A DNA stretch of 64,000 nt, from positions 512,001-576,000 of the forward strand of contig OZ219920.1 of assembly GCA_964291415.2 (NCBI GenBank), in the 5' to 3' direction. Made by a program: the position numbers and the translations under genes. Below are positions 16,414 through 55,639 of the stretch, one piece after another (the stretch's first letter is position 1; each line of letters begins with the position of its first letter). The notes below the pieces were generated by a model, which worked only from the letters and a program-made list of their open reading frames with translations, did no database searches and was not told the DNA's origin. Source of the DNA: Alphaproteobacteria bacterium (GTDB lineage Bacteria > Pseudomonadota > Alphaproteobacteria > SP197).

Positions 16414-16414
16414 G

Positions 16415-30200: not shown

Positions 30201-33200
30201 CGGCGTGTCGTTGGTCGCGGTCTGGGCGGAGAAGTCCGGCACCGGGTGGTTCGCGTTGTCCGAGTCCTGGAGCTTGTCGCCGGTCGCAGGCGCCGCGTAG
30301 GCCACCGTCACCGTGTCGATGCGCAGCACCGCCTCGGCCAGGGTGAGCGTCACCTCGTCGCCGCTGACGGAGACCGGGTTCGTGGCCGCCAGGCTCAGCG
30401 TGCTCTCGGTCCCCGAGCGCGTCCCCTTCACCGTGAACGCGCTCCCCGCCGGCACCGCGCTCCCGTCCAGCGCCCCGTCGAAGGTGACGGTCAGCTCATC
30501 GCCGTCCACCGTCGCGGACGAGAACGCCGGCGGCGTGTTGTTGGTCACGGCCTCCGTTGAACACCACGGGCGCCTCGTTGCCGGCAAGGTCCTTGAGCCG
30601 CTTGGTGGCGTCGTCCGACTGCGCGTACCCACCCTCGCCCTCTGCCCGTGCAGGGCCGCCGTCGCGAAGGTCAGGGTCACGGTGCGCCCGGAGATGGAAC
30701 GAGCCGGTGGGAGCCTCGCCCAAGCCGTCGAGGGCGCGCGAAAACTTGGCAGTTATCGAGCGACACGCTCTCGTCCAGCGCCTCGTCGAAGGTCACCGTC
30801 ATCGTCGTCCCGTTCGCCGACGCCGACACGAACGAAGGCTCCGTCGTGTCCGCCGGGGTGGCGTTGGTCGCCGTCTGGGCGGAGAAGCCCGGCACCGGGA
30901 GCTTCGCGTTGTCCGAGTCCTGCAGCTTGTTGCCCGTCGCCGGCGCCGCGTAGGCCACCGTCACCGTGTCGGCGCGCCAGCACCGCCTCGGCCAGGGTGA
31001 GCGTCACCTCGGAGCCGCTGACGGCGACCGGGTTCGTGGCCGCCAGGCTCAGCGTGCTCTCGGTCCCCGAGCGCGTCCCCTTCACCGTGAACGCGCTCCC
31101 CGCCGGCACCGCGTCCTCGTCCAGCGCCCCGTCGAAGGTGACGGTCAGCGCCGAGCCGTTCACCTTCGCCGACGAATACGCCGGCGGCGTGTTGTTGGTC
31201 AGGTTGTTAGCGAACGTCCCCTGCGGCACCAGGTTGCCAGCCAAGTCCTTCAGCGCGTTCGCCGAGTTCAAGTCCTGCGGCCCGACATAGGACGCCCGCA
31301 AGCGCACTCCGATGTGGCGTACCGCCGTCGCCAAGGTCACGGTCACGGTGTCGCCGGAAATCGAGACCCCCGACGAACGAATGGGGTTGACGAAGTCGTT
31401 GCCCCTTACGATCTGAAACATACTCGCCACCGCCGCTGGCGGCAGCACGCTCTCGTCCAGCGCTTCATTGAAGACCACCGTCATCTTCGCCCCGTTGATC
31501 GAGGCCGAGACGAACGAGGGCGGTGTCGTGTCCGCCGGCGTGTCGTTGGTCGCCGTCTGGGCGGAGAAGTCCGGCACCGGGTGGTTCGCGTTGTCCGAGT
31601 CCTGGAGCTTGTCGCCGGTCGCAGGCGCCGCGTAGGCCACCGTCACCGTGTCGATGCGCAGCACCGCCTCGGCCAGGGTGAGCGTCACCTCGTCGCCGCT
31701 GACGGAGACCGGGTTCGTGGCCGCCAGGCTCAGCGTGCTCTCGGTCCCCGAGCGCGTCCCCTTCACCGTGAACGCGCTCCCCGCCGGCACCGCGCTCCCG
31801 TCCAGCGCCCCGTCGAAGGTGACGGTCAGCTCATCGCCGTCCACCGTCGCGGACGAGAACGCCGGCGGGGTGACGTTGGTCGCGGTCGCGGCGAGCAAGG
31901 TGAAGTTGAGGCCGTCCGGCACGGCGATCGCGTTACCCGACTGGTCCGCGAGCCGGTCGGCCGCCGTGTTCGATTGATGGTAGCGAAGTAGCCCCACGCT
32001 CTCGCCATGGCCCGGTGCGTCGGCCGCGGCGAACGTCGCCGTCGCCGTCGCGCCGGAGATCGACACGCCCGTCGAGTCGTGCGCACTGCCGCCATGGGTC
32101 ACGCTGAACCGGTTGTTCGACACGTTCCCCGACGCGCCGGCGGCCGCCAGCGTCTCGTCGAAGACCACCGTCAGCGTCGTGCCGTTCATCGACGCCGAGA
32201 CGAACGTCGGACCCGTGGTATCCGCCGCGGTGTCGTTGGTCGCCGTCTTCGTGTCGCCGAAGCCCGTCACCGGGAGCTTCAGGTTGTCCGCGTCCTGGAG
32301 CTTGGCGCCGGTCGCAGGCACCGCGTAGGCCACCGTCACCGTGTCGGTGCGCAGCACCGCCTCGGCCAGGGTGAGCGTCACCGCCGAGCCGCTGATTGAG
32401 ACCGGGTTGGTGGCCGCCAGGCTCAGCGTGCTCTCGGTCCCCGAGCGCGTCGCCTTCACCGTGAACGCGCTCCCCGCCGGCACCGCGTCCTCGTCAAGCG
32501 CCCCATTGAAGGTGATGGTCAGCGCCGAGCCGTTCACCTTCGCCGACGAATACGCCGGCGGCGTGTTGTTGGTCAGGTTGTTAGCGAACGTCCCCTGCGG
32601 CACCAGGTTGCCAGCCAAGTCCTTGAGCGCGTTCGCCGAGTTCAAGTCCTGCGGCCCGACATAGGACGCCCGCAAGCGCACTCCGATGTGGCGTACCGCC
32701 GTCGCCAAGGTCACGGTCACGGTGTCGCCGGAAATCGAGACCCCCGACGAACGAATGGGGTTGACGAAGTCGTTGCCCCTTACGATCTGAAACATACTCG
32801 CCACCGCCGCTGGCGGCAGCACGCTCTCGTCCAGCGCTTCATTGAAGACCACCGTCATCTTCGCCCCGTTGATCGAGGCCGAGACGAACGAGGGCGGTGT
32901 CGTGTCCCCGGCGTTGCCCGCCGGCCGGTCGGCGAAACTCGGCAGCTCGTTGTTGGAGCTGTCCTTCAGCACATTGCCGCTGGCCGGCTTGTCGTAGCGC
33001 ACCGTCAGCCGCTCGTCCGCGGCCACCGCCGCGCTCAGCGTCGCCGTCACCGTCTTGTCCGAAATCCCGACCAGCGCGCCCGTGCCGGCGATGGTGCGGA
33101 TCGAGCCCGATTTCGAGGCGGTCACCGTGAACGCGCTGCCCGCGGGCTTCGAATTCGTGTCCAGCGCCGTGTCGAAGGTGACGCTCAGCTTGGTGCCGTC

Positions 33201-34112
33201 CACCGTCGCGCTCTTCACCCGCGACGGGAGCACCGTGACCGTCACCGTGTCCTCCTCGGACGACGTCCCGTCATTGACGGTCAGCGTGAAGGTCAGGTCG
33301 GTCTGCATGCTCACCGACGGCGCGATGAACGCCGGCGTCGCCGAACTCGCGTCGTCCAGCATCACCGTCGGCCCGGCCGTCTGCGACCACGCGTAGGTCA
33401 GCCTTGCGGGCCTCGAGCCCGTGCCGTCCAGCGCCACACGCGCCCCGGCACGGACCGTCAGGTCGTCACCCGCGTCGGCCGATAGGCTCAATGCCTCCAG
33501 TCTCGCCTGGGCGATGTCGCCAGCCCACACTCCGTTGTGGCGACTTCGCATTTCCACGCCCACCGTCCAGGTGACGCCGGTCTCCAGGCCGGTCAGCGTG
33601 AACGAGCGTGTTTGGGCGTTGGTTATCTGGCGGACCGGTCTCTCCACGTTCCCGGTGCTCTGTTTCTTTGCGTGGATGTGCCACCGGACGAAGTTCCCTT
33701 GGGGGCCCGTGGTGGCCGGCTCCCAGCGCAACGTGATCTCCCCGACGCCTGGTCCCGGCTCGGCGGTGCCCGTCGGCGCGTCTGCGCAGTTTGGGCAGCT
33801 GGTGCGGTCCAATCCCAGCTTCAGATGCACATGACCCTCAGCCCCTTCGTCATGCGCCTGGGCCGCCCCGGCGCCGAGCAGCAGGGGGAGGACGAGGGCG
33901 GCGGCGAGCGCGCAGGCGGACGCCCGCCAGGCGCGGGCCAGGCGGGCGGGCCGGAAGCCGGAAGGAGGGGGAGAGCGGGAGTGGCGCGCAGGGTCCGCCG
34001 GACGGCGGCGCCCGAGGCTCAGCCGGCCAGGGCGCTCCCGCAGGCGGGCCGGAGCCCGTCCCGAACCTGTCGCAGAGCCCGTCCCGAGCCTGTCGAGGGA
34101 GGCGCCGCCCAC
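21219..34112 (-). CDS. Giant autotransporter adhesin (~4300 aa if the frames are joined): signal peptide, FN3-like, PKD-like, many SwmB-like repeats, Calx-beta, C-terminal beta-barrel
   Basis: Consecutive minus-strand ORFs join at mid-domain. LLLGAGAAQA signal; ADAGDD..YAWSQTAGP; repeated ATVDG..LTLTFDEALD..L.D.AGN; YATADGTATAGEDY; barrel ending LKLEARF. Confidence 0.85.
23095..26410 (-). repeat. About 6-7 diverged ~120-aa repeats inside the adhesin
   Basis: Recurrent VVSDAG.D.TY..GD.IRV..TF.EAV.V..PRL....W..Y.SGSG...LTFAY.V..GIAVLA.TL...GG.I..GL.HD..HKVD. Confidence 0.85.
28550..32905 (-). repeat. Near-identical intragenic repeat array: six constant domains alternating with variable domains
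   Basis: GSAFTVKGTRSGTESTLSLAATNPV block occurs six times; MFQIVRGNDFVNPIRSSG block occurs three times (near 32780, 31400, 30070) with near-identical DNA. Confidence 0.92.
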
Positions 34113-37755: not shown

Positions 37756-37843
37756 GGCTCCTCCGCCATCCTCTGACCGCAATCAGGCGTTCGCGCCTGC
37801 CGGGGAGCCGATCACCCACGAGCGACCCTTGCGGCTGCACCCC

Positions 37844-38062
37844 TCATCGCGCCCCCAGCCTGTCCGCATCCGCCGTCGTGGTGGCCCGGCGCCGCGCCGC
37901 CCATGCGTCCAGATCCGACCGGCAATAGCGCACCCGGTTGCGGAAGCGGTGGAACGCCGGCCCGGCGCCGTTCACGCGGTAGCCGTCGAGCGTGCACGGG
38001 CCGAGGCCGAGATAGGCCGCCGCGCGCCTTGTGTCGAAGAATCCGCCCTCGCCGTTGCCCAT
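37844..38062 (-). CDS. Excisionase/AlpA-like HTH protein, copy A
   Basis: FDTRRAAAYLGLG..TL..G.GPAFHRF..RVRY..DLDAW; 72 aa. Confidence 0.85.
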   Translation of the reverse strand: MGNGEGGFFDTRRAAAYLGLGPCTLDGYRVNGAGPAFHRFRNRVRYCRSDLDAWAARRRATTTADADRLGAR

Positions 38063-38552
38063 GCCGCCCCCCCTTTCCATTGCAGGACGTGCCGGACCCG
38101 CTGCGGCGCCGACCCCAGCGCCTGCTGAGTACGGCACGCCGGCTGAAGCGAGGGTAGGCGGGGCGGCAGGGTATTCAAAGCGCACGATCAGGAGAACCCC
38201 GGCAGTGCTACGCCGACCTGGCAATTGCGCGCGGCTGACGTACCACCTGCTACCGACCAGCTTTCGGGGATTGCCAGTCGGGCGCCCCAGGCTTGTGCAC
38301 CGGGATCACCCGGGGAGTTCGACGCATCGCGACTTGCCACCGCGGCCAACCTCGAACCGCTGTCCCCGGGGCCGGTAGCTTGGGCATCGGCAAGCAGCGA
38401 TTCCGCAGGCGCAATGCGCACCGCGAACCGCATCCTCAACAGCGTTTCGCTCCGGTTCTCTCCGCTCGTGTCAGGAGCACTCGACGGCGCCGCTCGACAA
38501 CTTCCATCGCATCACCGAACATCGACAGCGTACACGAGCTCGGAGGACACCC

Positions 38553-38828
38553 ATGACCCGATCGGAGCTGTGTGCCCGCGCTGCGGCCCGCTCGTCGCTG
38601 TCAAAGGCCGACGTCGCCGCAGCGCTCGGCGCCCTCACTTCCAGCATTGCCGACGCGCTTGCCGAGGGCGAGACCGTCACCGTCGCCGGATTCGGGAAGT
38701 TCACGGTAAGGACCCGCGCGGCTCGCCAGGGGCGCAATCCCCGCACCGGCGAGCCCGTCGACGTCCCCGCCGCCCGGGTGCCGTCCTTCAAGGCCGCGAA
38801 GGCCCTCCGCGACGCGCTCAACCCATAG
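38553..38828 (+). CDS. HU/IHF-family DNA-binding protein
   Basis: GFGKF..RAARQGRNPRTGE..PSFKAAKALRD; GGAGGA RBS. Confidence 0.95.
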   Translation: MTRSELCARAAARSSLSKADVAAALGALTSSIADALAEGETVTVAGFGKFTVRTRAARQGRNPRTGEPVDVPAARVPSFKAAKALRDALNP

Positions 38829-39317
38829 CGGGCCGGATCTGTGGACAGCCATCCGGCTCTTGTCGCGGCAGCGCGGACGCGACCCGGCAGCGCCTTCGCC
38901 ACGGCGCCTCGTCGATACGCGACTGCTTGAACGCAGGAATGTTCAGGGTCCTAGCACCCGGCGCATTTCCACCCGGTGGACCCGCTCTGGCCGACAAGTC
39001 CCGATCATGAACATGTCCTGGCTCGCCCGCTGCGGTTTTGACTGGCGACGCGCCACAGAGTCACATTCGGGGCAGGGGGGAGGCGTAGCGATTTGCCCGA
39101 TTGGACAATCATGGGCATGGGCACCGATCCGAAATCATGCTCCGACGTTGAATCCCCACGCACGAGGGTACCCGCTTGCACATTCCATGCGAATGCCATG
39201 AACCAGTCACCCGTACCGGCACACCCGAGGGCTGGATCATGCGTGGTGATCGGTGAGTCCAGGGGTCGGGCATCTCCAGGCGATGATACTGCGCATGGCA
39301 GATCTGCTCGAAACAGG

Positions 39318-39367
39318 GTCCAATAGCGTGTTATCAGGCGGATGTGCCTGATAATCATTGGTTAGAG
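39318..39367 (+). other. Degenerate short attC-like site
   Basis: GTCCAAT..TTATCAGGC/GCCTGATAA hairpin..GTTAGAG; the GTTAGAG end is the exact complement of the next site's CTCTAAC. Confidence 0.55.
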
Positions 39368-39394
39368 CGCGCAAATTCAATAGAGGATTACGAC

Positions 39395-40096
39395 ATGGCT
39401 AGATGCACCGCACCAGTACGTGGCCATCGCACAGCGAGCGCGGCAGCCAACTGCCCTGCTTGCGGTGGGCGTTATGGCGGCTATAGGGGTTACAGCGGCT
39501 ACGGGTCGTACTCGCCCTCGTCTTACTCTCCGTCGCGTAACCGTGGCAGCGGTCGGAGCGGCGGCGGATCCAGCCGCACGACACAGCCGCGATGGTCGCG
39601 ACCAGGTTCGTCTGTCATGTACACGCCTGCCGAGGTGCGGACGCTTACACCGATCCGTGAAAACGTCGAGAAACGAGCGACGGTGCCCGATCTTCGTGAC
39701 ACCTTCCTTTGCCACGCTTGGGATGATCGGCAAGGGGCTGCCAAAGAGTTGCACGATCATCTTGAGTCTCGAGGCGTTTCCGTTTGGTTCAGCGAGAAGG
39801 ACATCGTCCTCGGTGCGTCGTTGCTTAGGGAAATCGACAAGGGCTTGGCCAACTCCCGAGTGGGGATCGTGCTGGTGACCCCTGCGTTCCTGCGCCGTGT
39901 CGAGGCAGAGGGTATTGCTGACAAAGAGCTTTCGGCGCTCTTGGCGCGTGATCTGCTCGTTCCTATCGTGCATAACACTACGTATGAAGCACTTCGCGAA
40001 GTTAGTCCATTACTTGGCTCGCGCAGTGGCTTGAGCACCGCAGAAGAGCCCATGGCAGACATTGTGGTAAAACTCGCGGAGTTGGTCGCGCTCTAA
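39395..40096 (+). CDS. TIR-domain protein with N-terminal Cys/His motif and Gly/Ser/Tyr-rich linker (gene cassette)
   Basis: DTFLCHAWDD, VSVWFSE, EIDKGL, IVLVTPAFL, DKEL (putative catalytic Glu); AGAGGA RBS. Confidence 0.9.
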   Translation: MARCTAPVRGHRTASAAANCPACGGRYGGYRGYSGYGSYSPSSYSPSRNRGSGRSGGGSSRTTQPRWSRPGSSVMYTPAEVRTLTPIRENVEKRATVPDLRDTFLCHAWDDRQGAAKELHDHLESRGVSVWFSEKDIVLGASLLREIDKGLANSRVGIVLVTPAFLRRVEAEGIADKELSALLARDLLVPIVHNTTYEALREVSPLLGSRSGLSTAEEPMADIVVKLAELVAL

Positions 40097-40178
40097 CAAT
40101 GCCTTGCAACCGACCCGCTTTCCGCTACTTCCCTTCGATCATTCGCTTCAAGCGGGCGGCTGAAGGCAGGCGTTATGT
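40091..40178 (+). other. Integron attC site (88 bp)
   Basis: CTCTAAC-AATGC-CTTGCAAC-CGACCCGCTT...AAGCGGGCG-GCTGAAG-GCAGGC-GTTATGT; the gene stop codon lies in the inverse core site. Confidence 0.9.
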
Positions 40179-40207
40179 TCTTCGTGAATTCCTCGACATA
40201 ACAAACG

Positions 40208-41086
40208 ATGAATGAGACGGAATATCAACGCCGTATGGCCCAGATCGATGAGTGGGCTAAAGCGCTAGGTTTTGAGCTGGCAGATCTGATCGAACCAAAT
40301 CCGGCAGATGTGATTTATCATTATACAAACTCTAGTGCACTGATTGGAATGCTTGAATCCGGCAAAGTCTGGGCTACGCATGTAAGCCGGATGAATGATT
40401 CGATGGAATATAAAATCGGGATCGAGTTGGTGGAACGATTGGTGCGGAAAAATATGGAAGGCCAGTTGCGTCAATTGTTCGAACGAGCGATATCCAACCT
40501 TGTGTCCGTAGATACATATATTGCTTGCTACTCATCTGAGGTAAATCAGCTTAGCCAGTGGCGTGCATACGCAGGGCTAGGCGTTGGCTATTGCATAGGG
40601 TTCAAGTCTGGTGATATGGCAACCACAGATGGCAGGATGCCGTTACTCGAAAAAGTCATCTACAGTGAGGAAGTCGCTGAAGCTGTTGTGGTACGCTTGC
40701 TTGGTCGGGTTGAGGAACTCTTGGCAAAAAGTGATTTCGGTGAGGTGGAGGTCGGTTACCTTCTCGGCATGCTGGAAGCAACGTTCAATATCGTGGCATG
40801 TATCATCAAGCATGCGGGATTTAAAGAGGAGGCTGAATACCGCCAGATATACCAACCGTCCATATCCTCGTTGTTGTTGGAAACCAAATTCAGGTCCGGT
40901 CGATATGGTTTAACGCCATATGTTGAGTTTGATTTTCTCAATGAAGGCCGGCTGCCAATTGAGTCGATTACTATTGGGCCATGCGCCGACCCAGATGAAG
41001 AAAATCGCACGCTTGCAGCAATACTGAGTCGGCATGGCTATCAATCTGTCGAACTCCAACAGTCTGGTATTCCTCTACGTGTGTAA
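40208..41086 (+). CDS. DUF2971-family protein (gene cassette, low GC)
   Basis: IYHYT, MND..E, SQWRAYA..GYCIGF, KHAGFKEEAEYR, ITIGP. Confidence 0.85.
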   Translation: MNETEYQRRMAQIDEWAKALGFELADLIEPNPADVIYHYTNSSALIGMLESGKVWATHVSRMNDSMEYKIGIELVERLVRKNMEGQLRQLFERAISNLVSVDTYIACYSSEVNQLSQWRAYAGLGVGYCIGFKSGDMATTDGRMPLLEKVIYSEEVAEAVVVRLLGRVEELLAKSDFGEVEVGYLLGMLEATFNIVACIIKHAGFKEEAEYRQIYQPSISSLLLETKFRSGRYGLTPYVEFDFLNEGRLPIESITIGPCADPDEENRTLAAILSRHGYQSVELQQSGIPLRV

Positions 41087-41113
41087 GATAGAAACAGCAA
41101 TCGTGCAGGACGA

Positions 41114-41173
41114 ATATAACAATTTGCTGCAGCGGACCAGCGTCCCGCTGGCCGCTGAGCACTGTCGTTATGT
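41114..41173 (+). other. Integron attC site (60 bp)
   Basis: ATATAAC-AATTT-GCTGCAGC-GGACCAGCG..CGCTGGCC-GCTGAGC-ACTGTC-GTTATGT. Confidence 0.9.
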
Positions 41174-41217
41174 GCAGGTAAGTGAGGTCGCAAGGAACAG
41201 GTGCCGGAGAAAATAAT

Positions 41218-41451
41218 ATGTCAAAATCCACATACAGCGTCACAGTCATATATGAAGGTCGAGAAAAGGATTACCGCGATTTCTGGGATCGCAAGATAAA
41301 GGTCAATTCGGACGGGGAAGAGCTTCATCCGGGGCTGGTGGGCTTTACAGAAGTGGTAGAGGCAAAGAATCTAAACGAGGCTATCGCAATCGTACAGAAA
41401 AAGCATCCGGCGCTAATTGTTGCAAGGGACCATTCAGCGAAAGTTGGATGA
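41218..41451 (+). CDS. 77-aa hypothetical protein (third cassette, no downstream attC seen)
   Basis: GGAGA RBS, low GC, starts shortly after an attC. Confidence 0.75.
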   Translation: MSKSTYSVTVIYEGREKDYRDFWDRKIKVNSDGEELHPGLVGFTEVVEAKNLNEAIAIVQKKHPALIVARDHSAKVG

Positions 41452-41701
41452 TCCGGGTTCTGATTACTTTACGTGAGTCTTTCTGGGGCGCAACTCCCGT
41501 ATGTCGATTGTAACCAACCGATTTATTGAGATTTTGCGTTCGTTTCCGATGGCCTTTGGGGCCGATCGGTGACAAGTGGGGTTTCGGGGTCGGGATTTTG
41601 TCACGGCCGCTCGGTTGCGGGGCCGGAAGCGGGACCGCTCCGCTCGCCGGGTGCGGGTAGGATGTCGTTCTGAACAAACCGGAACCACGGCAGCGCCCTC
41701 C

Positions 41702-41920
41702 TCATCGTGCGCCCAGCCTGTCCGCCTCCGCCGTCGTGGTGGCCCGGCGCCGCGCCGCCCATGCGTCCAGATCCGACCGGCAATAGCGCACCCGGTTGCC
41801 GAAGCGGTGGAACGCCGGCCCGGCGCCGCTCACGCGGTAGCCGTCGAGCGTGCGCGGGCCGAGGCCGAGATAGGCCGCCGCGCGCCTTGTGTCGAAGAAT
41901 CCGCTCTCGTCGCCGCTCAT
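41702..41920 (-). CDS. Excisionase/AlpA-like HTH protein, copy B
   Basis: Near-identical to 37844-38062. Confidence 0.85.
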   Translation of the reverse strand: MSGDESGFFDTRRAAAYLGLGPRTLDGYRVSGAGPAFHRFGNRVRYCRSDLDAWAARRRATTTAEADRLGAR

Positions 41921-42638
41921 GCCGTTCCCTCTCGATTGCCGAATGCGCCGGACCTTCCGCACCGCCGGCCCGCTCCCGCCGACGCAGAAAAGGTAGGCGG
42001 AGCCGCGCGGGTGTTCAAAGCCGACGGTTAGGGGAAATCCTCTATTGCCCCGCCGTCCGCGCGCTTGCACGCGCTCGGGCGCGGCGGCCGCGCCTGCGCC
42101 CGCCAGACAGCCATCGCGGGCACGCCCGGCGCCCACGATCCGCCTTCTTGAAGGCAGCGAACCGGGTCACGAGTTGCGGTTCCCTCACGGGCTGACGACG
42201 GCCATGCGATCGACGCGTCTGCCTGGCCGCGGCAGCCGCTGTAGGTGACGGTCGAGAACTGCATTTATTTGCTGGAGTTTGTCGCCTGCGCGCGGCGTTG
42301 GGATGACGTCCTGTTTGGCATTTGAGGGCCTTCTCTGTCGGAGCTGTGGGTAAATGGCCCGGCGCCGCGACCGCCACGAGTCTGGCGGCGGCGGGCCATT
42401 TATCCATAGCGGTCAGCCGTCTCGATTTTGATTTTGCCGGGCTGGCGGCGGTTCCGCGGCCCTGACAGCGAGACCTGCGGAACTAGACTGAGGCCGCTGA
42501 GAACGATGCGGCGCCGGCCCCGTCTGCTTGGTGGCAACGACCGGCGCCGCACCCCCCGAGCCATGCAAGGCGCGGCCCGTATGCGCAGTATCGTGCGCGC
42601 TCGGGCGCGGGTCCACCCCGTTCTCATCGGTTGTCGCG

Positions 42639-43070
42639 ATGAAGAACGCCGCCCGCCTGTTCACCTGCGCCTCGTGCCGTCGCCAGGTGGTTCTCTGCCG
42701 GCGCTGCGACCACGGCAACATCTACTGTTCGCGGCGCTGCAGCGACCGGGCGCGGCGTCGGTCGGTGCGCCTTGCCGGGCAGCGCTACCAGAACAGCCGC
42801 CGGGGCCGTCACAAGCATGCCGAGCGTCAGAGGCGCTACCGCGAACGCCGCTGCCCGGCGTCGGCGGCTCCGGCCAGGGTGCAGAAAGTGACGCATCACC
42901 CTTTGACCGCCGCGCGGTGGCGTCCTGTTGTGACGCGCATGTCGGCGGGGCGATCCGGAACCCGGCCCTTCGGGCACGACCGTCCCGCCAGAGTGTTCCG
43001 CTGCGATCACTGCGGGCGGTTCTGCGCCCGCGCGGTCTATCCGGGCCTGCGCCCGGCGCGAAGGGAGTGA
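42639..43070 (+). CDS. Cys-rich basic accessory ORF inside IS21
   Basis: CASC..CRRCDHGNIYCSRRC..CDHC; stop codon abuts istA start. Confidence 0.7.
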   Translation: MKNAARLFTCASCRRQVVLCRRCDHGNIYCSRRCSDRARRRSVRLAGQRYQNSRRGRHKHAERQRRYRERRCPASAAPARVQKVTHHPLTAARWRPVVTRMSAGRSGTRPFGHDRPARVFRCDHCGRFCARAVYPGLRPARRE

Positions 43071-43071
43071 G

Positions 43072-44577
43072 ATGGCCATCGACAAGCAGACCCGCGCCGA
43101 GATCCTTCGCCTGTATTTTGCCGAGAAGTGGAAGATCGGCACGATCGCGCGTCAGCTCGGCGTTCATCACAACACGGTCGACCGTATCGTCGGCGAGGCC
43201 GGGGTGCCCGTGCATCTGAGAGGGCGCAGGCCCTCCAGGATCGACCCCTTCCTGCCCTTCATCCGCCAGACCCTGGCGACCTGGCCCAAGCTGCCCTCCA
43301 CCCGGCTCTACCAGATGGCCGTAGAACGCGGCTACCGGGGCAGCCAGAGCCACTTCCGCAACGTGATCGCCCCCGAGCGTCCCAGGCCCGTGGCCGAGGC
43401 CTATCTGCGCCTCAACGCGCTTCCCGGCGAGCAGGGCCAGGTCGACTGGGCGCACTTCGGCAAGGTGAGGATCGGGCGGGCCGAGCGCCCGTTGATGGCC
43501 TTCGTGATGGTGCTCGGCCACTCACGGCGCCTCTTCCTGCGCTTCTACCTCAATGCCGGCATGGACAACTTCCTGCGCGGCCATGTCGAGGCCTTCGAGG
43601 CGTGGCAGGGTGTGCCCCGCGAGCTCTGGTACGACAACCTGAAGAGCGTCGTGCTGGAGCGCCATGGCGATGCCATCCGCTTCAACCCCCGGTTCCTCGA
43701 CTTCGCCGGTCATTACCGCTTCCTGCCGAAGCCCGTCGCGGTCGCCCGCGGCAACGAGAAGGGGCGCGTGGAGCGGGCCATACGCTATGTCCGCGACAGC
43801 TTCTTCGCCGCCCGCGCCTGGCGCGACATCGACGAACTCAACGACCGGGCCCGGGCCTGGTGCGACGGCATCGCCGCCGACCGTCCGTGGCCGGACGACC
43901 GCTCCCTGTCCGTGCGCGAGGCCTTCGAGCGCGAGTGCGGCTCTCTCCTCGCGCTGCCCGACGACCGGCCCCCGGTCGACGAGCGCGTCGAAGTCAGGAT
44001 CGGCAAGACGCCTTACGCCCGGTTCGACCTGAACGACTACAGTGTCCCGCATACCCATGTGCGGCGCACCCTCACCGTGGTCGCGACGCTGGAGCAGGTG
44101 CGCATCCTCGACGGCCTGGACGTCATCGCCAGCCATCCGCGCAGCTTCGACAAGGCGGCCCGCATCGAGAACCCCGAGCACATCGAGGAACTGGTCAGGC
44201 ACAAGCATCACGCGCACCGCCTGCGCGGGCAGAGCCGGCTGCTCCAGGCCGCCCCCAACAGCGAACTCCTGCTCGCCGAGACCGCAAAACGCGGCGGCTA
44301 CATGGGCGCTACCGTCGCCGCCCTGCTGCGCCTGCTCGACCAGTATGGCGCCGCTGAACTCGAGGCGGCCATCGACGAGGCCCTGAAGCGGGACGTTCCC
44401 CATCCCAACGCCGTGCGGCTCAGCCTCACCCGGCGCCGCGAGCAGCAAGACCGGCCTCCGCCCATCCCCGTCGAGCTGCCCAGGGATCCGAGAGTGCGCG
44501 ACATCGCCGTCCGCGATCACGACCTCGGCGGATACGACGGGCTGGTCGAAGACCCCGAAGAGGACAGCGAAGAATGA
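43072..44577 (+). CDS. istA: IS21 transposase
   Basis: PGEQGQVDWA, YDNLKS, EKGRVERAIRYVR DDE motifs. Confidence 0.96.
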   Translation: MAIDKQTRAEILRLYFAEKWKIGTIARQLGVHHNTVDRIVGEAGVPVHLRGRRPSRIDPFLPFIRQTLATWPKLPSTRLYQMAVERGYRGSQSHFRNVIAPERPRPVAEAYLRLNALPGEQGQVDWAHFGKVRIGRAERPLMAFVMVLGHSRRLFLRFYLNAGMDNFLRGHVEAFEAWQGVPRELWYDNLKSVVLERHGDAIRFNPRFLDFAGHYRFLPKPVAVARGNEKGRVERAIRYVRDSFFAARAWRDIDELNDRARAWCDGIAADRPWPDDRSLSVREAFERECGSLLALPDDRPPVDERVEVRIGKTPYARFDLNDYSVPHTHVRRTLTVVATLEQVRILDGLDVIASHPRSFDKAARIENPEHIEELVRHKHHAHRLRGQSRLLQAAPNSELLLAETAKRGGYMGATVAALLRLLDQYGAAELEAAIDEALKRDVPHPNAVRLSLTRRREQQDRPPPIPVELPRDPRVRDIAVRDHDLGGYDGLVEDPEEDSEE

Positions 44578-45389
44578 CCGATACCCTCAAGAACCGTGCC
44601 CTGGCCCTCGGCCTGCACGGCCTCGTCTCCCACTGGGGCGACATCGGCGAGACCGGATGGCTCCCAACCCTGATCACATGGGAAGAGGAGGAACGGCGTA
44701 GCCGTAGCCTCAAACGCCGCCTCGGCACCGCCCGCATCGGACGCTTCAAGCCCCTCGCAGACTTCGACTGGGACTGGCCAAGGCGCTGTGACCGCATGGC
44801 CGTCGAGGACCTCATGAGCCTCGACTTCCTCGACGAAGGCGCCAACGTCGTCCTCATCGGACCCAACGGCGTCGGCAAGTCGACCATTGCCGCAAATATC
44901 GCCCACCGCGCCGTGCTCGAAGGCCATACCGTGCGCTTCGCCACTGCCGCCAGCCTGCTCGGCGAACTCGCCGCCATCGACTCCGATACCCTGCTACAGC
45001 GCAAGCTCCGCTTCTACGCCCGACAGCACCTCCTGGTGATCGACGAAGTCGGATATCTCTCCTACTCCAACCGCCATGCCGACCTGCTGTTCAATATCGT
45101 CTCCAGCCGCAGCCAGAAGCGCTCCACCATCATCACAACAAACCGGCCCTTCGCCGAGTGGAGCGAGGCCTTCCCGAACGCCGCCTGCCTCGTGGCCCTG
45201 GTCGACCGGCTCGTCCACAACGCCGAAATCCTCGCCATCGACGGCGACTCATATCGCCGAAAGGAAGCCGAGGAACGTCAGAAGGTCCGAAGCGCCGAGC
45301 GCCGCCGCCGGCGGAGCGCGAAAGACAGGCAGACTACCGGAAAGGCACGTGAAGCCGAACCCGGAACGCCGCCGAACTCCAGCAAATAA
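44574..45389 (+). CDS. istB: IS21 helper ATPase
   Basis: GPNGVGKS, LLVIDEVGY, ITTN, DRLVH, GDSYR. Confidence 0.96.
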   Translation: MTDTLKNRALALGLHGLVSHWGDIGETGWLPTLITWEEEERRSRSLKRRLGTARIGRFKPLADFDWDWPRRCDRMAVEDLMSLDFLDEGANVVLIGPNGVGKSTIAANIAHRAVLEGHTVRFATAASLLGELAAIDSDTLLQRKLRFYARQHLLVIDEVGYLSYSNRHADLLFNIVSSRSQKRSTIITTNRPFAEWSEAFPNAACLVALVDRLVHNAEILAIDGDSYRRKEAEERQKVRSAERRRRRSAKDRQTTGKAREAEPGTPPNSSK

Positions 45390-45475
45390 GTGCACTTCCT
45401 AACCGTCGCTAACAGCCGCCACCGTATCGCGTCGTCCTCCCGCCACCGCGTGACCGAACGGCAACAAACGATCTC

Positions 45476-45793: not shown

Positions 45794-46045
45794 TCAGCTT
45801 TCATCCGCCAGAAGCGATTCGAGTCGGGCCTCGGTCAAGCCATTCGCGCAAGCTTCCTCCCCCAAAGCATCCATCGTCGCAGTCAGGCGCTCCCACGCGG
45901 CTCCTCGAAGCCGCTCATACTGCTGCACCGACATGATCACGCCGACCGCGCGGCCCTTTCTGGTCACGCGCACGGGCGCGCTCTGCGCGTCATCGAGCAG
46001 GTGGCCGAAGCGATTCTTGGCTTCTCTCGCCGCTATCTCCTTCAT
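45794..46045 (-). CDS. Phd/YefM antitoxin (orphan; only a stub of a PIN toxin follows)
   Basis: AREAKNRFGHLLD..PVRVTRKGR; overlapping ATG continues MKAE-RVVLD after a frameshift and then degenerates. Confidence 0.9.
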   Translation of the reverse strand: MKEIAAREAKNRFGHLLDDAQSAPVRVTRKGRAVGVIMSVQQYERLRGAAWERLTATMDALGEEACANGLTEARLESLLADES

Positions 46046-46349
46046 GTAGCCATAACAGCCATAATGGCTTCCAATTGCAATCGCTGTCCGACTTGCGGAC
46101 CACCATGATCAAGGTGCGGTCGGGAACTCCCGGCCCCGCCTGATACCCCGCAAGGGTCTCAATTCCCGAAGGGTGGCCGGCGCGACCTCCCGGAATGGAA
46201 GAACGCCCACAGACTTGGTGGGCCCCTGGACAACTCTCCACCGGACACCGGGTCGAGGTCGAAGTGGAGGCCCCGAAACTCCGGGTCAGCAGGCCGGCCC
46301 GCGTCGCAGGACACTTCCCCTGTCGTAGTCGTTCTCGTCATCCAGCCGG

Positions 46350-46480
46350 GGGCATGGGGAACTTCCCCAAGGTTGATGCCGTGGGCGGTGGTGACGATCC
46401 GGCTTTGCGCGGCCTGGCGGAACACCTTGATCAGGGGCGCCGCCGGTACCGCGCCCGCCTCGACAAGGTTGCAGTCAATG
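46350..46480 (-). pseudogene. RecD2-like helicase fragment
   Basis: GAVP..L..VFRQAAQSRIVTTAHGINLG motif only. Confidence 0.6.
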
Positions 46481-46603
46481 CAATTGCGCTTGCCGGGCGA
46501 CACCCTTCTCGGTCTTGAAGGGTTGCTCCCTGACAGGGTGGAAGCGCCGCCGTCCAAGGGGCCAGGTCCCCGCCTGCACATGCCGGGCCGACGGGATCCC
46601 GTC

Positions 46604-47353
46604 TCAGTCGAGGGGCCTGATCGCCTTCATGATGAGGGTCGCCGGCACCATGTCGAGAATTCTCGGGACATACTTGGCGCGCAGGCCGAACCAGGGATCG
46701 TAGGGATAGCGAATTCGGGAGTCCGGCTCGACAATTCTCTCGACCGCCAAACCGGCGTCCACCAGAGCCTGGTGCAGGCTCGAGATGGTGTACCGGTGGA
46801 CCGTGACGTGGCCGTGCTCGCCCCTGTCGTCGAGACTTGGGCCCGTTTCGTTGCAGCTCTCGACGAGCATCAGGGTGTCACGATCGACCTTCCTGAAGAA
46901 GGGGTGCTCGAGCGAAAAGACAAAGACGCCGCCTGGCCGCAGGACGCGCATGACCTCGCGGAAGGTCCCGGTCCTGTCGGCCACGAACTGCAGGGCGAAC
47001 GCGGAGAACACGATGTCCATGCTCGCCGAGGCGATCGGCTCGAGGTCGCCCATGTCGTGTTGCACGAAGTCGATCTCGACGCCGTGCCGGACCGCCAGCG
47101 CCCGGGCGAAGCGGAGCTGCTCGACCGAGATATCGAGCGCGGTCGGCCGGGCCCCGCGCAGGGCAAACGCGACCGAACACTGGGCGCCGCCACATCCGAT
47201 CTCCAGGACGTCCCGCCCCTTGAGGTCGCCCAGCAGGTTGAGTTCGTCCTCGTTGGGGCTGCCCGGGCCGTAGTGGATGTCGACAGGGATGCGCGTGCCC
47301 GCCTGGTAGGCCCCGGAATAGCCTTCCCAGAATTCCTTGATGTCGTCCGTCAT
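46604..47353 (-). CDS. Class I SAM-dependent methyltransferase
   Basis: VLEIGCGGAQ, LDIS, RVLRPGGVFVFS. Confidence 0.92.
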   Translation of the reverse strand: MTDDIKEFWEGYSGAYQAGTRIPVDIHYGPGSPNEDELNLLGDLKGRDVLEIGCGGAQCSVAFALRGARPTALDISVEQLRFARALAVRHGVEIDFVQHDMGDLEPIASASMDIVFSAFALQFVADRTGTFREVMRVLRPGGVFVFSLEHPFFRKVDRDTLMLVESCNETGPSLDDRGEHGHVTVHRYTISSLHQALVDAGLAVERIVEPDSRIRYPYDPWFGLRAKYVPRILDMVPATLIMKAIRPLD

Positions 47354-47660
47354 GTCAGGAACCCCCGACGGCCGACTGGTCCTGCACCGGCGCGGCGCCT
47401 TGCTTCGACCCGAAACGCCCTTGCATCGCTTCCGGCTCTCCCTTTGCGGTCCGTCCGGCGCCTTGTCGTTCTCCCCTTGTGGCGGATCGGGGCCGGCGAT
47501 TCAAGCGACGACATGGACCGTCAGGCGCGCCAGACACCCTCCTGCAGGAGTTCGTCCGTCGCCGCCGACCCGGATCGAAGAGCGCCCGCAGACTTGCCCA
47601 CAACTACCAGGGGAGCCAACTCCTACACTATGTGGTGGGACTCAACCTCTGGTGGTTGGC

Positions 47661-48715
47661 TAGAGCGCAATCCTATCTGAGTGAATCGAAAGGGATTCCC
47701 AAGTCGTTTGTTTTGTGATTCACACTGTCTGCCGGGAAGGAGGCCGGCAGACATGTCGCAAGCGCTTTCCCTTGATCTTCGTGTTCGGGTCCTTGAGGCG
47801 GTGGCCGAGGGCCTGAGTCACCGCGCCGCTGCGGCCCGCTTTGGCGTGAGTGCGGCGAGTGTCAGCCGCTGGCGCAGACGGGCACACGTTGAGGGCGATC
47901 CTCGTCCGAGAGCGCTGGGCGGCGACCGTCGCTCGGGTCGCATCGAAGCGCATCGAACGCTGATCCTTGGCGTGCTGGCTGAGACGCCGGACAGCACCAT
48001 CGAAGAGTTGCGCCGCCTGCTCGCCAGGCGCGGGCTCGACTTTGGCTACGGCACGATCCAGCGCTTCCTCATCCGCCACCAGATGACGCGCAAGAAGAAG
48101 ACGGGCCACGCCAGCGAGCAGGACCGCCCGGACGTTCTCGATCGCCGGCAGGCGTGGCGCGAGAAACAGACCGCGCTCGATGCGACCCGTCTGGTCTTCA
48201 TCGACGAAACCTGGGCCAAGACCAACATGACCCGCAGCCATGGCCGCGCGCTCAAGGGCCAACGCCTACGCATGGGCCAGCCGCACAGTCACTGGAAGAC
48301 CTCGACCTTCGTCGCCGGGCTCACGCTTGGAGGCATGATCGCACCCTTCGTGCTCGACGGACCGATCAACCGTCTCGCCTTCGAGACCTACGTCGAGAGG
48401 GTGCTGGTCCCCGAACTGCGCCCGGGCGACATCGTCATCATGGACAACCTGTCCAGCCACAAGGGGCCAAGGGTCCGGGAAACGATTCAGACGGCCGGTG
48501 CCGAGCTCGTGTTCCTCCCGCCCTACTCACCCGATCTCAACCCGATCGAGATGGCCTTCTCCAAGCTCAAGGCGAACTTGCGCAAGGCCGCCGAGCGCAC
48601 CGTAGAAGGCCTGTGGAACGCCATCGCCCGCATTCTCGAAACCATCAAGCCCCAGGAATGCCGGAACTACTTCGCAGCCGCCGGATATGATCCAGCCTGA
48701 TCGGATAACGCTCTA
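47661..48715 (+). mobile_element. IS630-family element
   Basis: Ends TAGAGCGCAATCCTATC / GATCGGATAACGCTCTA; TA at both ends. Confidence 0.92.
47753..48700 (+). CDS. IS630 transposase
   Basis: LVFIDET, IMDNLSSHK, LPPYSPDLNPIE. Confidence 0.96.
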   Translation: MSQALSLDLRVRVLEAVAEGLSHRAAAARFGVSAASVSRWRRRAHVEGDPRPRALGGDRRSGRIEAHRTLILGVLAETPDSTIEELRRLLARRGLDFGYGTIQRFLIRHQMTRKKKTGHASEQDRPDVLDRRQAWREKQTALDATRLVFIDETWAKTNMTRSHGRALKGQRLRMGQPHSHWKTSTFVAGLTLGGMIAPFVLDGPINRLAFETYVERVLVPELRPGDIVIMDNLSSHKGPRVRETIQTAGAELVFLPPYSPDLNPIEMAFSKLKANLRKAAERTVEGLWNAIARILETIKPQECRNYFAAAGYDPA

Positions 48716-48829
48716 GAGCGGAAGATCCGGTCGCTTGCAGCGGTGCAGGCGAACGCACGTATGGAAGAATGATCGATCAAATCCCGGAGATTCGCCGCGC
48801 GTTCTTTGCGCGTTTCGCAACGGCACATG

Positions 48830-49439
48830 TCAGCGGTACACGGCGGGGCTCTTCTTCGAGCGAGCCAGTTCGAGGAAACGGGTCTTGATCCGCGCGAACA
48901 GCCCCGGCGGGATGTAACCGTAGCTGAGGGTATCCGGCCGACCGGGCACCGGAGACAGTCCGGCATTGGGCCATTGGGACATATATCGGAAAGTCACATC
49001 ACACTTTCCGATCTACAGCATTGCACTCCAGCAATGTCAATGCATGGGCGGCCTTCGGGTCGAGTCGTTTGATCGGCGTTCCCGCGTTGCCCACACACGA
49101 GGCCCGGCCCATCACGCCGGGCCTCTTTGTGACTTTCGGATAGTAAGTCCCGGGCCATTCATCGATGTTGTGTTCCGATACGATCACCCAGTTCGGCGGG
49201 CCGTCCAGGCCCAAGGCCTGTCTGACGCGCGCCGGCATTTCGATGCCCACGGTATCGCCCTCGGGTCGTGCATGGGTGATCGGCAGCAGCACGACATGGC
49301 GCGGGCGATGCGTCGGGTCGGTGGCGGCTATCAGACAAGCAGGACGGTTCTTGCCCTGATCGCGGCCGGTGGCGGCCTCATGCGTCCAGAGAGTGTCGTA
49401 GCGGACGAGCAGGCCCGGCTTCGGATCGGGAAGCGTCAC
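48830..49439 (-). pseudogene. PemK/MazF-like toxin interrupted by a MITE
   Basis: GKNRPAC, VVLLPITH; removing the insert and one duplicated target restores ..NIDEWP-NAGLSPVPG..YGYIPPGLF..stop. Confidence 0.8.
48976..49151. mobile_element. 176-bp MITE with 8-bp target duplication
   Basis: IRs GGGACATATATCGGAAAGTCACA / TGTGACTTTCGGATAGTAAGTCCC; GGGCCATT at 48968-48975 and 49152-49159. Confidence 0.9.
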
Positions 49440-49449
49440 CGTTTCGTCG

Positions 49450-49704
49450 TTACGTCAGCAGGTCGTCGAGCGGCTTGTGCTCCACATCCATCTCGGCGCG
49501 CTCCACCGCGTCGATCACCACATCGGCGGAATCTTCTGTACGATGGCTGCGCTGCGCCGAAGCTCGAAGCCAGTCATATTGCTCCGCGGACATGAGCACG
49601 AACTCTCGGCGCCCATGCCGGGTTATCTCCACCGGCTCGCGCTGCGCCTCGTGCTGGAACCGGCCGAACTTGCGCTGGAACTCAAGGGCGCTCACTCTGG
49701 GCAT
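49450..49704 (-). CDS. Phd/YefM antitoxin
   Basis: VSALEFQRKFG..EPVEITRHGR..VLMSAEQY. Confidence 0.9.
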   Translation of the reverse strand: MPRVSALEFQRKFGRFQHEAQREPVEITRHGRREFVLMSAEQYDWLRASAQRSHRTEDSADVVIDAVERAEMDVEHKPLDDLLT

Positions 49705-49789
49705 GGCAAACTCCCCAGATAACAAGGATCGGCCTCAATACACGTATAGACCGTAGAGTTGAAAGGGGCAGGCTCGCGAAGCTGTGCGC

Positions 49790-49985
49790 CGGTCCAGTCG
49801 GCCGCGTATCCTCGGGTGCGGAAGGTCCGGCAGCCGCATGTCCGGTGATGCACGAAGCCGCAGGACCAGACGCGGTCCGTCCGCTCGGTACGCACCTTCA
49901 GCCCCTCGCGCCGCCGCACCACGCCAGAGGCCCTGCGCACATCGCAGACAACGTCCGTTGCGTCAGCACACCTGTCGCAAGGGTC
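49790..49985 (-). pseudogene. IS3-family transposase remnant
   Basis: RREGLKV..ERTDRVWSCGFVHHRT..RTFRT, degenerate integrase-core start. Confidence 0.6.
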
Positions 49986-51924: not shown

Positions 51925-52077
51925 AATGGTGCTCCAGTCCGGTTATCCAAGGAGACGCAAGGGTAGCAACCATCGCACCCTTCGTCCGGCAGTTGATTCA
52001 TCCACAGTCCTCGTTCGGTTGGTTTCCACAAGGAGTCTAGGATGCCGGCAACCTCCCCGGGACTAGAGGAGCAGGGT

Positions 52078-53460: not shown

Positions 53461-53461
53461 T
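53318..53461 (+). repeat. 144-bp direct repeat copy 1 (ampG 3' end)
   Basis: Matches 54790-54933 with 8 mismatches by manual alignment. Confidence 0.95.
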
Positions 53462-53731
53462 CTAAGGATCACCGCGCGCTCGTCATCGACCGGCCTCTCA
53501 AAGTCTGTAGCGACTTTTCGAGGCCTCGTCCGACGAGGCGACCGACGCGGCTCTCGAGACGCAGCGGGGCAGGGGCGGCAATGACCTTTCGGTTGCAGCC
53601 ATGCAACCCGAGGCGTCCTGGGGACGCAATGGCGGCGCCTGCACGAACGCATCCGAACCATTCACCGAATACCCGCCAACCCGCCAGGCGCCAGAACCGA
53701 CACTTGGACGTTCCCGGGATGCACTCCATTG

Positions 53732-53751
53732 TGATAGCGTATATGCTGTCA
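53732..53751. promoter_or_regulatory. Putative TA operator palindrome
   Basis: TGATAGC-N6-GCTGTCA directly before the PIN gene start. Confidence 0.45.
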
Positions 53752-53755
53752 AGTT

Positions 53756-54184
53756 ATGGAGAAGAAGATTGTCTCGGGCACGTATGTTCTTGTCTCCGCG
53801 GTTCTTTCTCCTGATGGCGCGGCGCGGGAAGTCCTGCGGCGGTGCCTTGTCGGCGCCGCCCAACCGTTGATCGGCAACGCATTGTTCCTGGAGTACGAGG
53901 ATGTCCTGTCGAGAGAGGAGTTGTTCGCCGAGGCGCTGATCGGTTCGCAAGAGCGTACGGCACTGATGGATGCCGTGCTGGGCGTCTGCCAGTGGATTAA
54001 CATTTCCTATCTTTGGCACCCGAACCTCCGGGACGAGTCCGACAATCACCTGGTGGAGTTGGCGGTTGCTGGGAATGCGGCGTGGATTGTGACAGGCAAT
54101 GCGAGGGATGCCGCAGAGGGGGAGCTCGTTTTCGATGGCTTCCAGGTTGTCACACCGGGGGAATGGCTGAAGGGAGACTATTGA
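53756..54184 (+). CDS. PIN-domain toxin, first catalytic motif altered
   Basis: EYEDVLSR, PNLRDESDNHLVELAVAG, IVTGN.RD; the expected DTNV reads GTYV. Confidence 0.85.
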   Translation: MEKKIVSGTYVLVSAVLSPDGAAREVLRRCLVGAAQPLIGNALFLEYEDVLSREELFAEALIGSQERTALMDAVLGVCQWINISYLWHPNLRDESDNHLVELAVAGNAAWIVTGNARDAAEGELVFDGFQVVTPGEWLKGDY

Positions 54185-54185
54185 C

Positions 54186-54416
54186 ATGGCAACGCTGACG
54201 ATCCGGCTTCCCGATGCGCACCGCGACCGTTTGGCGGCGATGGCTGCGCAGCGTGGCGTGAGCATGAACAAGCTGATGGCAGAGCTCTCGGTGCGGGCGT
54301 TGGCCGAACACGACACCGAAATGCGGTTCCGGATGCGCGCAGCGCGCGGCGATACCGAACGTGGTTTGAAGTTGCTTGCCGAACTCGACCGTCGGCACGC
54401 GCAGTCGAATACGTGA
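54186..54416 (+). CDS. Ribbon-helix-helix antitoxin
   Basis: MATLTIRLPD..RL..A..RGVSMNKL; coupled to the PIN gene. Confidence 0.85.
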   Translation: MATLTIRLPDAHRDRLAAMAAQRGVSMNKLMAELSVRALAEHDTEMRFRMRAARGDTERGLKLLAELDRRHAQSNT

Positions 54417-54537
54417 GGGACCCGCGAGTCTTTCGATTGACGCGATCTGTCCGGTCCGGTCCATGCCGTGTTCTCGACTCGTCGAAAGCATGCTGGAAGA
54501 GGTGTGCCGACGCGATCTGCGCAAGGGATAATCGACC

Positions 54538-55633: not shown

Positions 55634-55639
55634 GGCTTC

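Follow-up and report, generated by a model that had tools for sequence, protein, structure and literature searches.

A 64,000-nucleotide stretch of an alphaproteobacterial genome (GenBank assembly GCA_964291415.2, contig OZ219920.1, positions 512,001 to 576,000 of the forward strand; hereafter 'the window') contains, at positions 39225–41565, an array that is probably a decayed integron. An attI-like junction is followed by two complete gene cassettes and by a terminal open reading frame (ORF) unit without an attC site, and there is no integrase in the vicinity. IntegronFinder 2 defines an integrase-less integron cassette array (CALIN) as two or more attC sites without an integron integrase close by (PMC9024848). 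The window has two attC sites and no IntI, and the array is therefore a CALIN. The cassettes encode a TIR-domain protein and a DUF2971 protein, a cargo that is defence-like by homology and putatively active in defence. The array is real and fairly ordinary of its kind; it extends known biology without changing it. An initial annotation, made from the sequence alone, had described a CALIN that carries defence-like cargo and stands beside a conjugative element. The two attC sites, the lack of IntI, the TIR and DUF2971 matches and the F-type conjugation genes at 1–19.3 kb agree with that description.

The array coincides with a low-GC island. The GC content is about 0.72 in the window up to 38 kb and falls to 0.48–0.60 at 39.0–41.5 kb (0.59–0.60 at 39.0–40.0 kb, 0.48–0.49 at 40.0–41.5 kb). 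Three ORFs, all on the plus strand, occupy the island: 39395–40096 (233 aa), 40208–41086 (292 aa) and 41218–41451 (77 aa). They are thus co-oriented and low in GC, as had been annotated. The further claim that attC sites separate the three genes was borne out in part: there are two complete cassettes, and the third ORF unit has no attC of its own. The coordinates of all features are collected in Table 1.

The two clear attC sites of 88 and 60 bp, annotated at 40091–40178 (attC1) and 41114–41173 (attC2), were recovered at those positions. Both have the R'' AAC and R' GTT boxes and lie downstream of co-oriented ORFs. The imperfect palindrome of attC1 is located directly 3' of the first ORF, with the stop codon of the TIR gene inside R''; that of attC2 starts 27 nt 3' of the second ORF. 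The cassette ends are self-consistent, as the annotation had noted. GTTAGAG (39361–39367) exactly complements CTCTAAC (40091–40097), in a run that extends to 11 bp (by eye), and GTTATGT (40172–40178) pairs with ATATAAC (41114–41120) with one mismatch. The orthologous cassette 2 of two other genomes (loci L007 and L009, see below) has a perfect ACATAAC, and the complementarity is 9 bp in those copies. Such complementarity between a cassette start and its own R'' is what a circular cassette leaves behind when it is opened between G and TT (G/TT).

When folded as single-stranded DNA, the bottom strand of each site forms a single hairpin with an R-box stem, an internal loop, a long stem and a terminal loop. 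Two bulged bases stand 6 bp apart on the 3' arm, with the same spacing in both sites (opposite 40106/40113 in attC1 and 41129/41136 in attC2). The terminal loop has 3 nt in attC2 and about 30 nt in attC1. Both sites thus show the architecture that the literature gives for attC sites, with an AAC triplet, extrahelical bases, a central spacer that stays unpaired and a terminal structure that varies (PMC12614218, PMC4889954). The fold of attC2 has a z-score of −4.1, and none of 200 shuffled sequences was equally stable; that of attC1 reaches only −1.6 and does not stand far apart from its shuffles. A hairpin alone is no evidence in a GC-rich window, since a scanner for hairpins bounded by AAC...GTT gives 18 + 23 matches, mostly inside GC-rich coding sequence.

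The annotation had named an attC covariance model as the test of its sites. We used a home-made surrogate, R1, which stands in for IntegronFinder's own attC model. Its training set was seven attC sites taken from metagenome loci of three unrelated genomes, L031 (Nannocystaceae), L026 (from a deltaproteobacterium) and L011 (Nitrospirota). Larger MAFFT alignments, with 19 and 8 sites, were out of register, and only the seven-sequence alignment A4 was used. In a search of both strands of the whole window with filters off, R1 matched attC1 at 43.2 bits (E 1.2e-10) and attC2 at 42.5 bits (E 2e-10). The third-best of the 69 matches listed had 14.2 bits (E 0.098), which places both sites about 29 bits over background. 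Aligned to R1, 23 related attC sites had 97.1% of cells paired, compared with 74.6% in shuffles (none of 500 reached the observed value), and 13 of 20 pairs varied on both sides; slid controls gave 23–40%. These statistics use an alignment fitted to R1, which favours the model.

The strongest evidence is the comparison with other genomes, which shows how the units move. The DUF2971 protein has 159 relatives in a protein collection, mostly metagenomic, and a profile scan with one genome per species gave 80 loci with DUF2971 relatives. Four of them (L007, L008, L009 and L016) hold close copies with 85–93% protein identity; L007 and L009 are labelled Alphaproteobacteria, and L008 is a gammaproteobacterial metagenome-assembled genome (MAG) with roughly 52% GC. 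R1 finds five attC sites in L007, two in L009 and one each in L008 and L016. Homology of the window to these four loci breaks at the G/TT points 39361, 40174 and 41170. After attC2, L007 and L016 carry other cassettes and diverge from the window from TT onward. Two other cassettes stand between the platform and the TIR cassette in L007, and in L008 cassette 2 is located directly at the platform.

In 18 loci that were read, GTTATGT or GTTATAT precedes the DUF2971 gene in 10, and an exact ACATAAC or ATATAAC heads a palindrome after it in 9. Both motifs occur in 7 of the 18; these include genomes of Nitrospirota and deltaproteobacteria in which protein identity is down to 47–60%. Two of the 80 loci (L069 and L051) have a distant DUF2971-family gene (27–28% identical) as the first cassette beside a divergent IntI; the two integrases score 452 and 464 bits on the integrase model TIGR02249 (cut-off 265). 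L026, one of the sources of R1, keeps a C-terminal fragment of IntI. The units circularise at G/TT, move between arrays and occur in true integrons; on these comparative grounds we regard it as settled that the two units of the window are integron cassettes. In a further locus, L072 (1190–19068; Bacteroidota, a Saccharicrinis MAG), our own scanner picked out nine or more candidate attC sites, each about 130 bp long and all pointing the same way. R1 did not detect these candidates, and the IntI-like recombinase of that locus has 149.9 bits on TIGR02249, below the cut-off.

Table 1. Features of the array and segments matching it in other genomes. For attC sites, the minus strand is the folding (bottom) strand.
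Feature	Position in window	Strand	Evidence or remark
Direct repeat, left copy, 238 bp, with HTH_17 (AlpA-like) gene 37844–38062	37837..38074	-	Repeat D1, 93% identity; Pfam HTH_17
Non-coding platform with attI-like junction	39225..39361	+	Ends at G of first G/TT crossover; contains the degenerate site of the initial annotation
Hairpin with 9-bp arms, inside platform	39331..39354		DNA fold, z about −2.3 to −2.5
Cassette 1, 811 bp: TIR gene 39395–40096 and own attC	39362..40172	+	L007 homology, Pfam TIR_2, PADLOC ThsB
attC1, 88 bp; R'' CTCTAAC, R' GTTATGT	40091..40178	-	R1 43.2 bits, E 1.2e-10
Cassette 2, 995 bp: DUF2971 gene 40208–41086 and own attC	40173..41167	+	L008/L007/L016 homology breaks, PF11185
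attC2, 60 bp; R'' ATATAAC, R' GTTATGT	41114..41173	-	R1 42.5 bits, E 2e-10
Third unit: ORF 41218–41451 and 114-bp tail	41168..41565	+	Conserved with L009, L008
Direct repeat, right copy, 238 bp, with HTH_17 gene 41702–41920	41695..41932	-	Immediately downstream of array
L007 9154–10963	39361–41170		96.7% identity; exactly cassettes 1 and 2 (blastn)
L007 6930–7073	39225–39368		76% identity; platform (blastn)
L009 9018–11377	39225–41565		94.6% identity; platform, both cassettes, third unit (blastn)
L008 9967–11539	40174–41746		91.6% identity; begins at cassette 2 (blastn)
L016 4785–5342	40619–41176		94.4% identity; end of cassette 2 (blastn)

A complete integron has intI adjoining its array, and none adjoins this one. 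The tyrosine recombinase at 62978–63928, the sole one scanned with TIGR02249, is Xer-like (76.7 bits) and was rejected as an IntI. A tblastn search with the IntI proteins of L069 and L051 gave no other match better than E 2.7 in the window, so that the array has no IntI in the 39 kb before it or the 22 kb after it. The annotated absence of intI from the window therefore holds.

CALIN are common, with 2961 in RefSeq (PMC9024848), and about 95% of them have no recognisable intI pseudogene according to the IntegronFinder work (PMC4889954/PMC9024848). The array resembles those described (Cury 2016, PMC4889954; Neron 2022, PMC9024848) in its two attC sites, its co-oriented, apparently promoter-less cassettes and the lack of an IntI gene or recognisable pseudogene nearby. 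It differs from them in the conserved attI-like junction common to four integrase-less arrays, in its host, an alphaproteobacterium and probably one of the Rhodospirillales, and in a last unit without attC. Proteins of the window share 90% clusters with entries named as Rhodospirillales, Rhodospirillaceae and Defluviicoccus MAGs. The annotation had called integrons uncommon in Alphaproteobacteria, and published surveys agree. The 2016 survey reported no integron, In0 or CALIN in 243 alphaproteobacterial genomes (PMC4889954), and the 2022 survey counted only six complete integrons in the class (PMC9024848), a gap that the authors called puzzling.

Upstream of cassette 1 is a non-coding platform of 136 bp that is common to four integrase-less arrays. 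In alignment A6, the window, L009, L007 and, more weakly, L008 are alike up to the G and diverge from TT on; in L008 the first T of G/TT is changed to C. Three different first cassettes stand at this same G/TT: the TIR cassette in the window and L009, one for an AbiJ_NTD5 protein in L007, and the DUF2971 cassette in L008. The platforms of L007 and L009 are 98% identical and share the same upstream break, with different cassettes behind them. Since the first cassette varies at one junction, the platform appears to behave like an attI. We name it attI-like, not attI, because no IntI or fragment of it is located near any of the four arrays. The literature describes L and R boxes in attI (PMC12614218); a TAAT...GTTA inverted pair with a 5-bp spacer at the junction (found by eye) fits these boxes loosely and is weak evidence.

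The initial annotation had placed a third, degenerate attC at 39318–39367. We rejected this site. In a 3.2-kb search it gave 6.2 bits with R1 (E 1.5), which is the level of matches in coding sequence, and an R'' box is missing; the sequence forms the end of the attI-like platform instead. The platform hairpin, which the annotation had read as a degenerate attC, is not retained in L008 (alignment A6, by eye).

The third unit starts at the attC2 crossover and is conserved to 41565 with L009 and to 41746 with L008. No attC was found 3' of its ORF (orf3), either by folding or by R1 in the whole-window and 3.2-kb searches. The 77-aa protein matches no Pfam, NCBIfam or PADLOC family, and the atlas assigns it to unnamed clusters only. 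orf3 follows attC2 and the DUF2971 gene directly in three of the five arrays compared (window, L008 and L009), and a role as obligatory DUF2971 partner was rejected on this count; L007 has a different cassette with its own attC in place of orf3. The unit may be either a cassette with a decayed attC or original flank. L008 11260–11539 matches window 41452–41746 with 91.6% identity, past orf3 and as far as bp 45 of the AlpA-like gene. Because this homology continues beyond orf3, the array seems to have travelled with flanking DNA as well as in the form of cassettes.

The protein of cassette 1 contains a TIR_2 domain (Pfam, E 1.2e-15) and matches the PADLOC ThsB model PDLC00424 end to end (positions 1–233 of 234, E 1.2e-125). 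Among solved structures, bacterial TIR domains come closest (7uxr, 3h16, AbTir, TcpB). It is like the ThsB of Thoeris (PDLC00424; PMC12578639) in the full-length profile match and in a TIR domain of the AbTir/PdTIR/TcpB type. Unlike ThsB, it is encoded by a stand-alone gene without an adjoining ThsA and has a conserved N-terminal C-H-C-C motif: C4, H11, C20 and C23 are invariant in the family, and a variable Ser/Gly/Tyr-rich linker precedes the TIR domain. As no ThsA-type partner was found among the 50 window ORFs scanned, and the neighbours are the DUF2971 gene and the 77-aa ORF, an identity as a Thoeris system was rejected.

The TIR family is mobile and markedly conserved, and it is widespread on plasmids. 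A match over at least 80% of the protein was found on 198 plasmids; among the matches listed, protein identity is 63–75%, and the carriers include Bradyrhizobium, Bacillus and Klebsiella. Six family members (L001–L006) have 66–75% protein identity across plasmids of Bacillus, Klebsiella/E. coli and rhizobia, which is unusually high for such distant hosts. In the six plasmid contexts inspected, the TIR gene stands alone, in some cases next to restriction-modification or Dnd genes, and no ThsA adjoins it. No attC flanks the homologues on these six plasmids: R1 gave three matches, all in L003 and with E 0.24 or worse. Only the TIR gene itself matches plasmids, and the regions 40090–41700 and 38830–39400 gave no plasmid match.

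Cassette 2 encodes a protein of the DUF2971 family (PF11185), which also has weak matches to PADLOC PDC-S31. Residues H38, Y39, Y121, E208 and E210 are invariant in 37 DUF2971 sequences. For this family a modified H-Y-ExE ADP-ribosyltransferase motif and similarity to DarT have been described (PMC12522546). The invariant His, Tyr and Glu residues fit the motif, with a provisional assignment of residues to its positions. The AlphaFold (AF2) model of the protein has a pLDDT of 89.6. A characterised member of the family is Aristaios, a 316-aa single-gene DUF2971 protein of lactococcal plasmids with demonstrated antiphage activity and an abortive phenotype (PMC11381338). The cassette protein resembles it as a single PF11185/DUF2971 protein, some 300 aa long, with conserved H, Y and ExE; a predicted ADP-ribosyltransferase fold may be a further common trait. 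It differs in the host phylum and in its location in an integron cassette, and the relation between the two is at the level of the Pfam family (E 2.3e-7).

The TIR and DUF2971 genes are probably independent single-gene modules and not one system. A joint system was rejected because L008 carries DUF2971 but no TIR gene and the TIR family is widely distributed by itself; the two cassettes also differ in GC content (0.60 for TIR, 0.49 for DUF2971), which likewise argues for two modules. Phage-defence cassettes are established in mobile integrons (bioRxiv 10.1101/2024.07.02.601719) and in sedentary 'biobanks' (PMC12614218). The present array is like these in storing compact, single-gene, defence-like cassettes; here defence is indicated by homology. 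A term search of a cassette-screen preprint returned no cassette named as TIR, Thoeris or Aristaios.

If the cargo does act against phages, the stand-alone, ThsB-like TIR protein of cassette 1 would probably consume or convert NAD+ on infection. The Aristaios-like DUF2971 ADP-ribosyltransferase of cassette 2 would probably cause abortive infection. The bottom strands of the attC sites would fold when the DNA is single-stranded, during replication or transfer by the neighbouring F-type system. If an IntI were encoded at another place in the genome or arrived on an incoming element, it could excise or reorder the cassettes in that state; in its absence the array would be frozen.

The sister arrays look defence-related as well. 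The first cassette of L007 (7098–7862) encodes an AbiJ_NTD5 domain and a TIR-like effector part. A gene of roughly 1000 aa lies beside the array in L008 (11917–14847) and L009 (12096–15125); that of L008 has a match, under the Pfam cut-off, to Eco57I restriction-modification methylases, and that of L009 is alike by eye only.

Several results weigh against our reading of the array and its cargo. The training candidates for R1 were collected with our own AAC...GTT hairpin scanner, and R1 is narrow: attC sites adjoining the real IntI genes of L069 and L051 score 15.4–16.7 bits (E 0.027–0.064), although they are still the top R1 matches of their loci. No sigma-70-like promoter was found in 38800–41800 by a scan limited to the sigma-70 consensus (0, compared with 1.9 expected). 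No ThsA-type partner (SIR2/SLOG or Macro) is encoded among the 50 window ORFs scanned with Pfam. TIR NADases rely on a catalytic Glu; E178 is invariant in seven of seven family members and E172 in six of seven, and either of the two may be the catalytic Glu. The Pfam match of the DUF2971 protein is modest (32.5 bits against a cut-off of 22, E 2.3e-7). The best match in the PDB, DarT1 8baq, is weak (E 0.024, probability 0.80, TM 0.30/0.39), and three further DarT entries are among the matches, none of which reaches E 0.001. Finally, tblastn with the two IntI proteins found neither intI nor a remnant in the window, L007, L008 or L009.

The cargo might serve another purpose than defence: the two proteins could form addiction or toxin modules, or be effectors that target other cells. 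We consider this rather unlikely. In its favour, some 18% of the DUF2971 family are predicted to be effectors (PMC12522546), TcpB and AbTir-type proteins are among the nearest solved relatives of the TIR domain, neither a partner nor an antitoxin is apparent, and the window is rich in toxin–antitoxin pairs. However, the TIR protein matches ThsB of PADLOC over its full length and its plasmid homologues adjoin restriction-modification and Dnd genes, Aristaios shows experimentally that the DUF2971 family can act in defence (PMC11381338), and the sister arrays, one with an AbiJ-domain cassette, are located beside Eco57I-like methylase genes.

For the origin of the array, no intI remnant was seen in the four platform arrays, which leaves insertion at a secondary site as a rival to a decayed integron. 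An integrase would then have inserted the cassettes at a genomic site with an attG-type GTT, and the platform and orf3 would be the flanks. Integration of cassettes at genomic sites with the creation of CALIN has been described (PMC12614218, PMC4889954). It would also suit the missing integrase, the short platform (the part common with the window is 136 bp, and L007 and L009 have 259 bp in common) and an orf3 that lacks attC and follows straight after attC2 in three of five arrays. We nevertheless judge it unlikely. Three different first cassettes at one junction are what is expected of an attI, and the TAAT...GTTA pair points, weakly, in the same direction. Further, L007 has no orf3 after its last attC, so that platform and orf3 are no obligatory pair.

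A decayed integron also has to be weighed against an array that is still served by an IntI elsewhere on the replicon or in the genome, as the satellite of an active integron. Between the window and L007 the cassettes are 96.7% identical and the platforms 76%. The nearly identical platforms of L007 and L009, with one upstream break and differing cassettes, point to a recent exchange of the integrase type, and the window is only part of a much longer contig. Against this stand the 39 kb upstream and 22 kb downstream without IntI. Most published CALIN are in genomes without intI (PMC4889954), and complete integrons are very rare in Alphaproteobacteria (PMC9024848). We regard a satellite as improbable.

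Going one step further, the platform could be a working 'orphan attI', a docking site in Rhodospirillales-type elements that is served by an integrase in trans. Cassettes would be continually inserted and removed by such an integrase, brought transiently, for example, by conjugative elements. Four arrays have the junction in common but no integrase, and L007 and L009 differ in their attI-proximal cassettes behind the same truncated platform. The contrast of 76% identical platforms with 97% identical cassettes is a hint of recent exchange, but we rate this proposal as quite improbable. If it were true, integron-type capture would operate in a class thought to lack integrons, and surveys requiring a linked intI would miss such arrays.

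A further alternative, that the palindromes are ordinary terminators or REP-like repeats without any link to integrons, can draw on the 18 + 23 AAC...GTT hairpins of the scanner but is effectively refuted by the margin of about 29 bits in the covariance search, the lack of a called terminator-like site at either palindrome, the homology breaks exactly at G/TT, the complementarity of cassette start and end conserved across phyla, and the related genes that adjoin IntI.

A clean two-cassette CALIN with a conserved junction is present in this genome and in two further metagenome genomes labelled Alphaproteobacteria, which shows that cassettes reach the class and persist in it. Less usual in comparison with known CALIN are the host class, the integrase-less junction common to four arrays and the gap in identity between platform and cassettes. 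Two candidate defence cassettes join a growing list, one for a stand-alone ThsB-like TIR and one for an Aristaios-like ADP-ribosyltransferase; each is a small single gene and easily tested.

The array lies in a mobile region. A nearly complete F-type conjugation set occupies the minus strand at 1–19335 and includes the coupling protein, TraG, TraH, TraF, TraW, TrbI, TraC, a TraB-like protein, TraK, TraE and TraL. TraC is apparently split into the overlapping ORFs 12568–14307 and 14126–15769. Very large minus-strand ORFs (1510, 371, 337 and 1119 aa) with SWM_repeat, Big_5 and Calx-beta domains follow at 21219–34112. As these giant ORFs overlap, they may represent one or two frameshift-broken adhesin-like genes. 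A P450 gene is located after this run. The 238-bp direct repeat (93%) brackets an HU gene together with the array, and the AlpA-like gene alone is duplicated.

About 300 bp beyond the right AlpA-like gene, an IS21-family element is inserted (42230–45424) with istA (43072–44577), istB (44574–45389) and 55-nt imperfect terminal inverted repeats (76%). Toxin–antitoxin and abortive-infection-type genes are densely packed at 45794–59920: two Phd/YefM, PIN with RHH, an MqsA-like HTH, AbiEi/AbiEii and Fic/DOC. An IS630-type DDE_3 transposase lies among them at 47681–48700. Scans for tRNA genes and Rfam families found nothing. A second low-GC patch at 61000–62200 (0.51–0.56) contains a hydrophobic 143-aa ORF (61751–62182) and a 61-aa ORF, without a Pfam family. 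It was rejected as a second cassette array, as R1 gave noise there (7.9 bits). A C-terminal fragment of IS66 (62254–62445) is followed by plus-strand, recombinase-related ORFs up to 64000. ORF 62688–63092 overlaps the Xer-like gene 62978–63928 and may be its frameshifted N-terminal part. The Xer-like gene probably belongs to a tandem recombinase set, because a second overlapping ORF starts at 63925.

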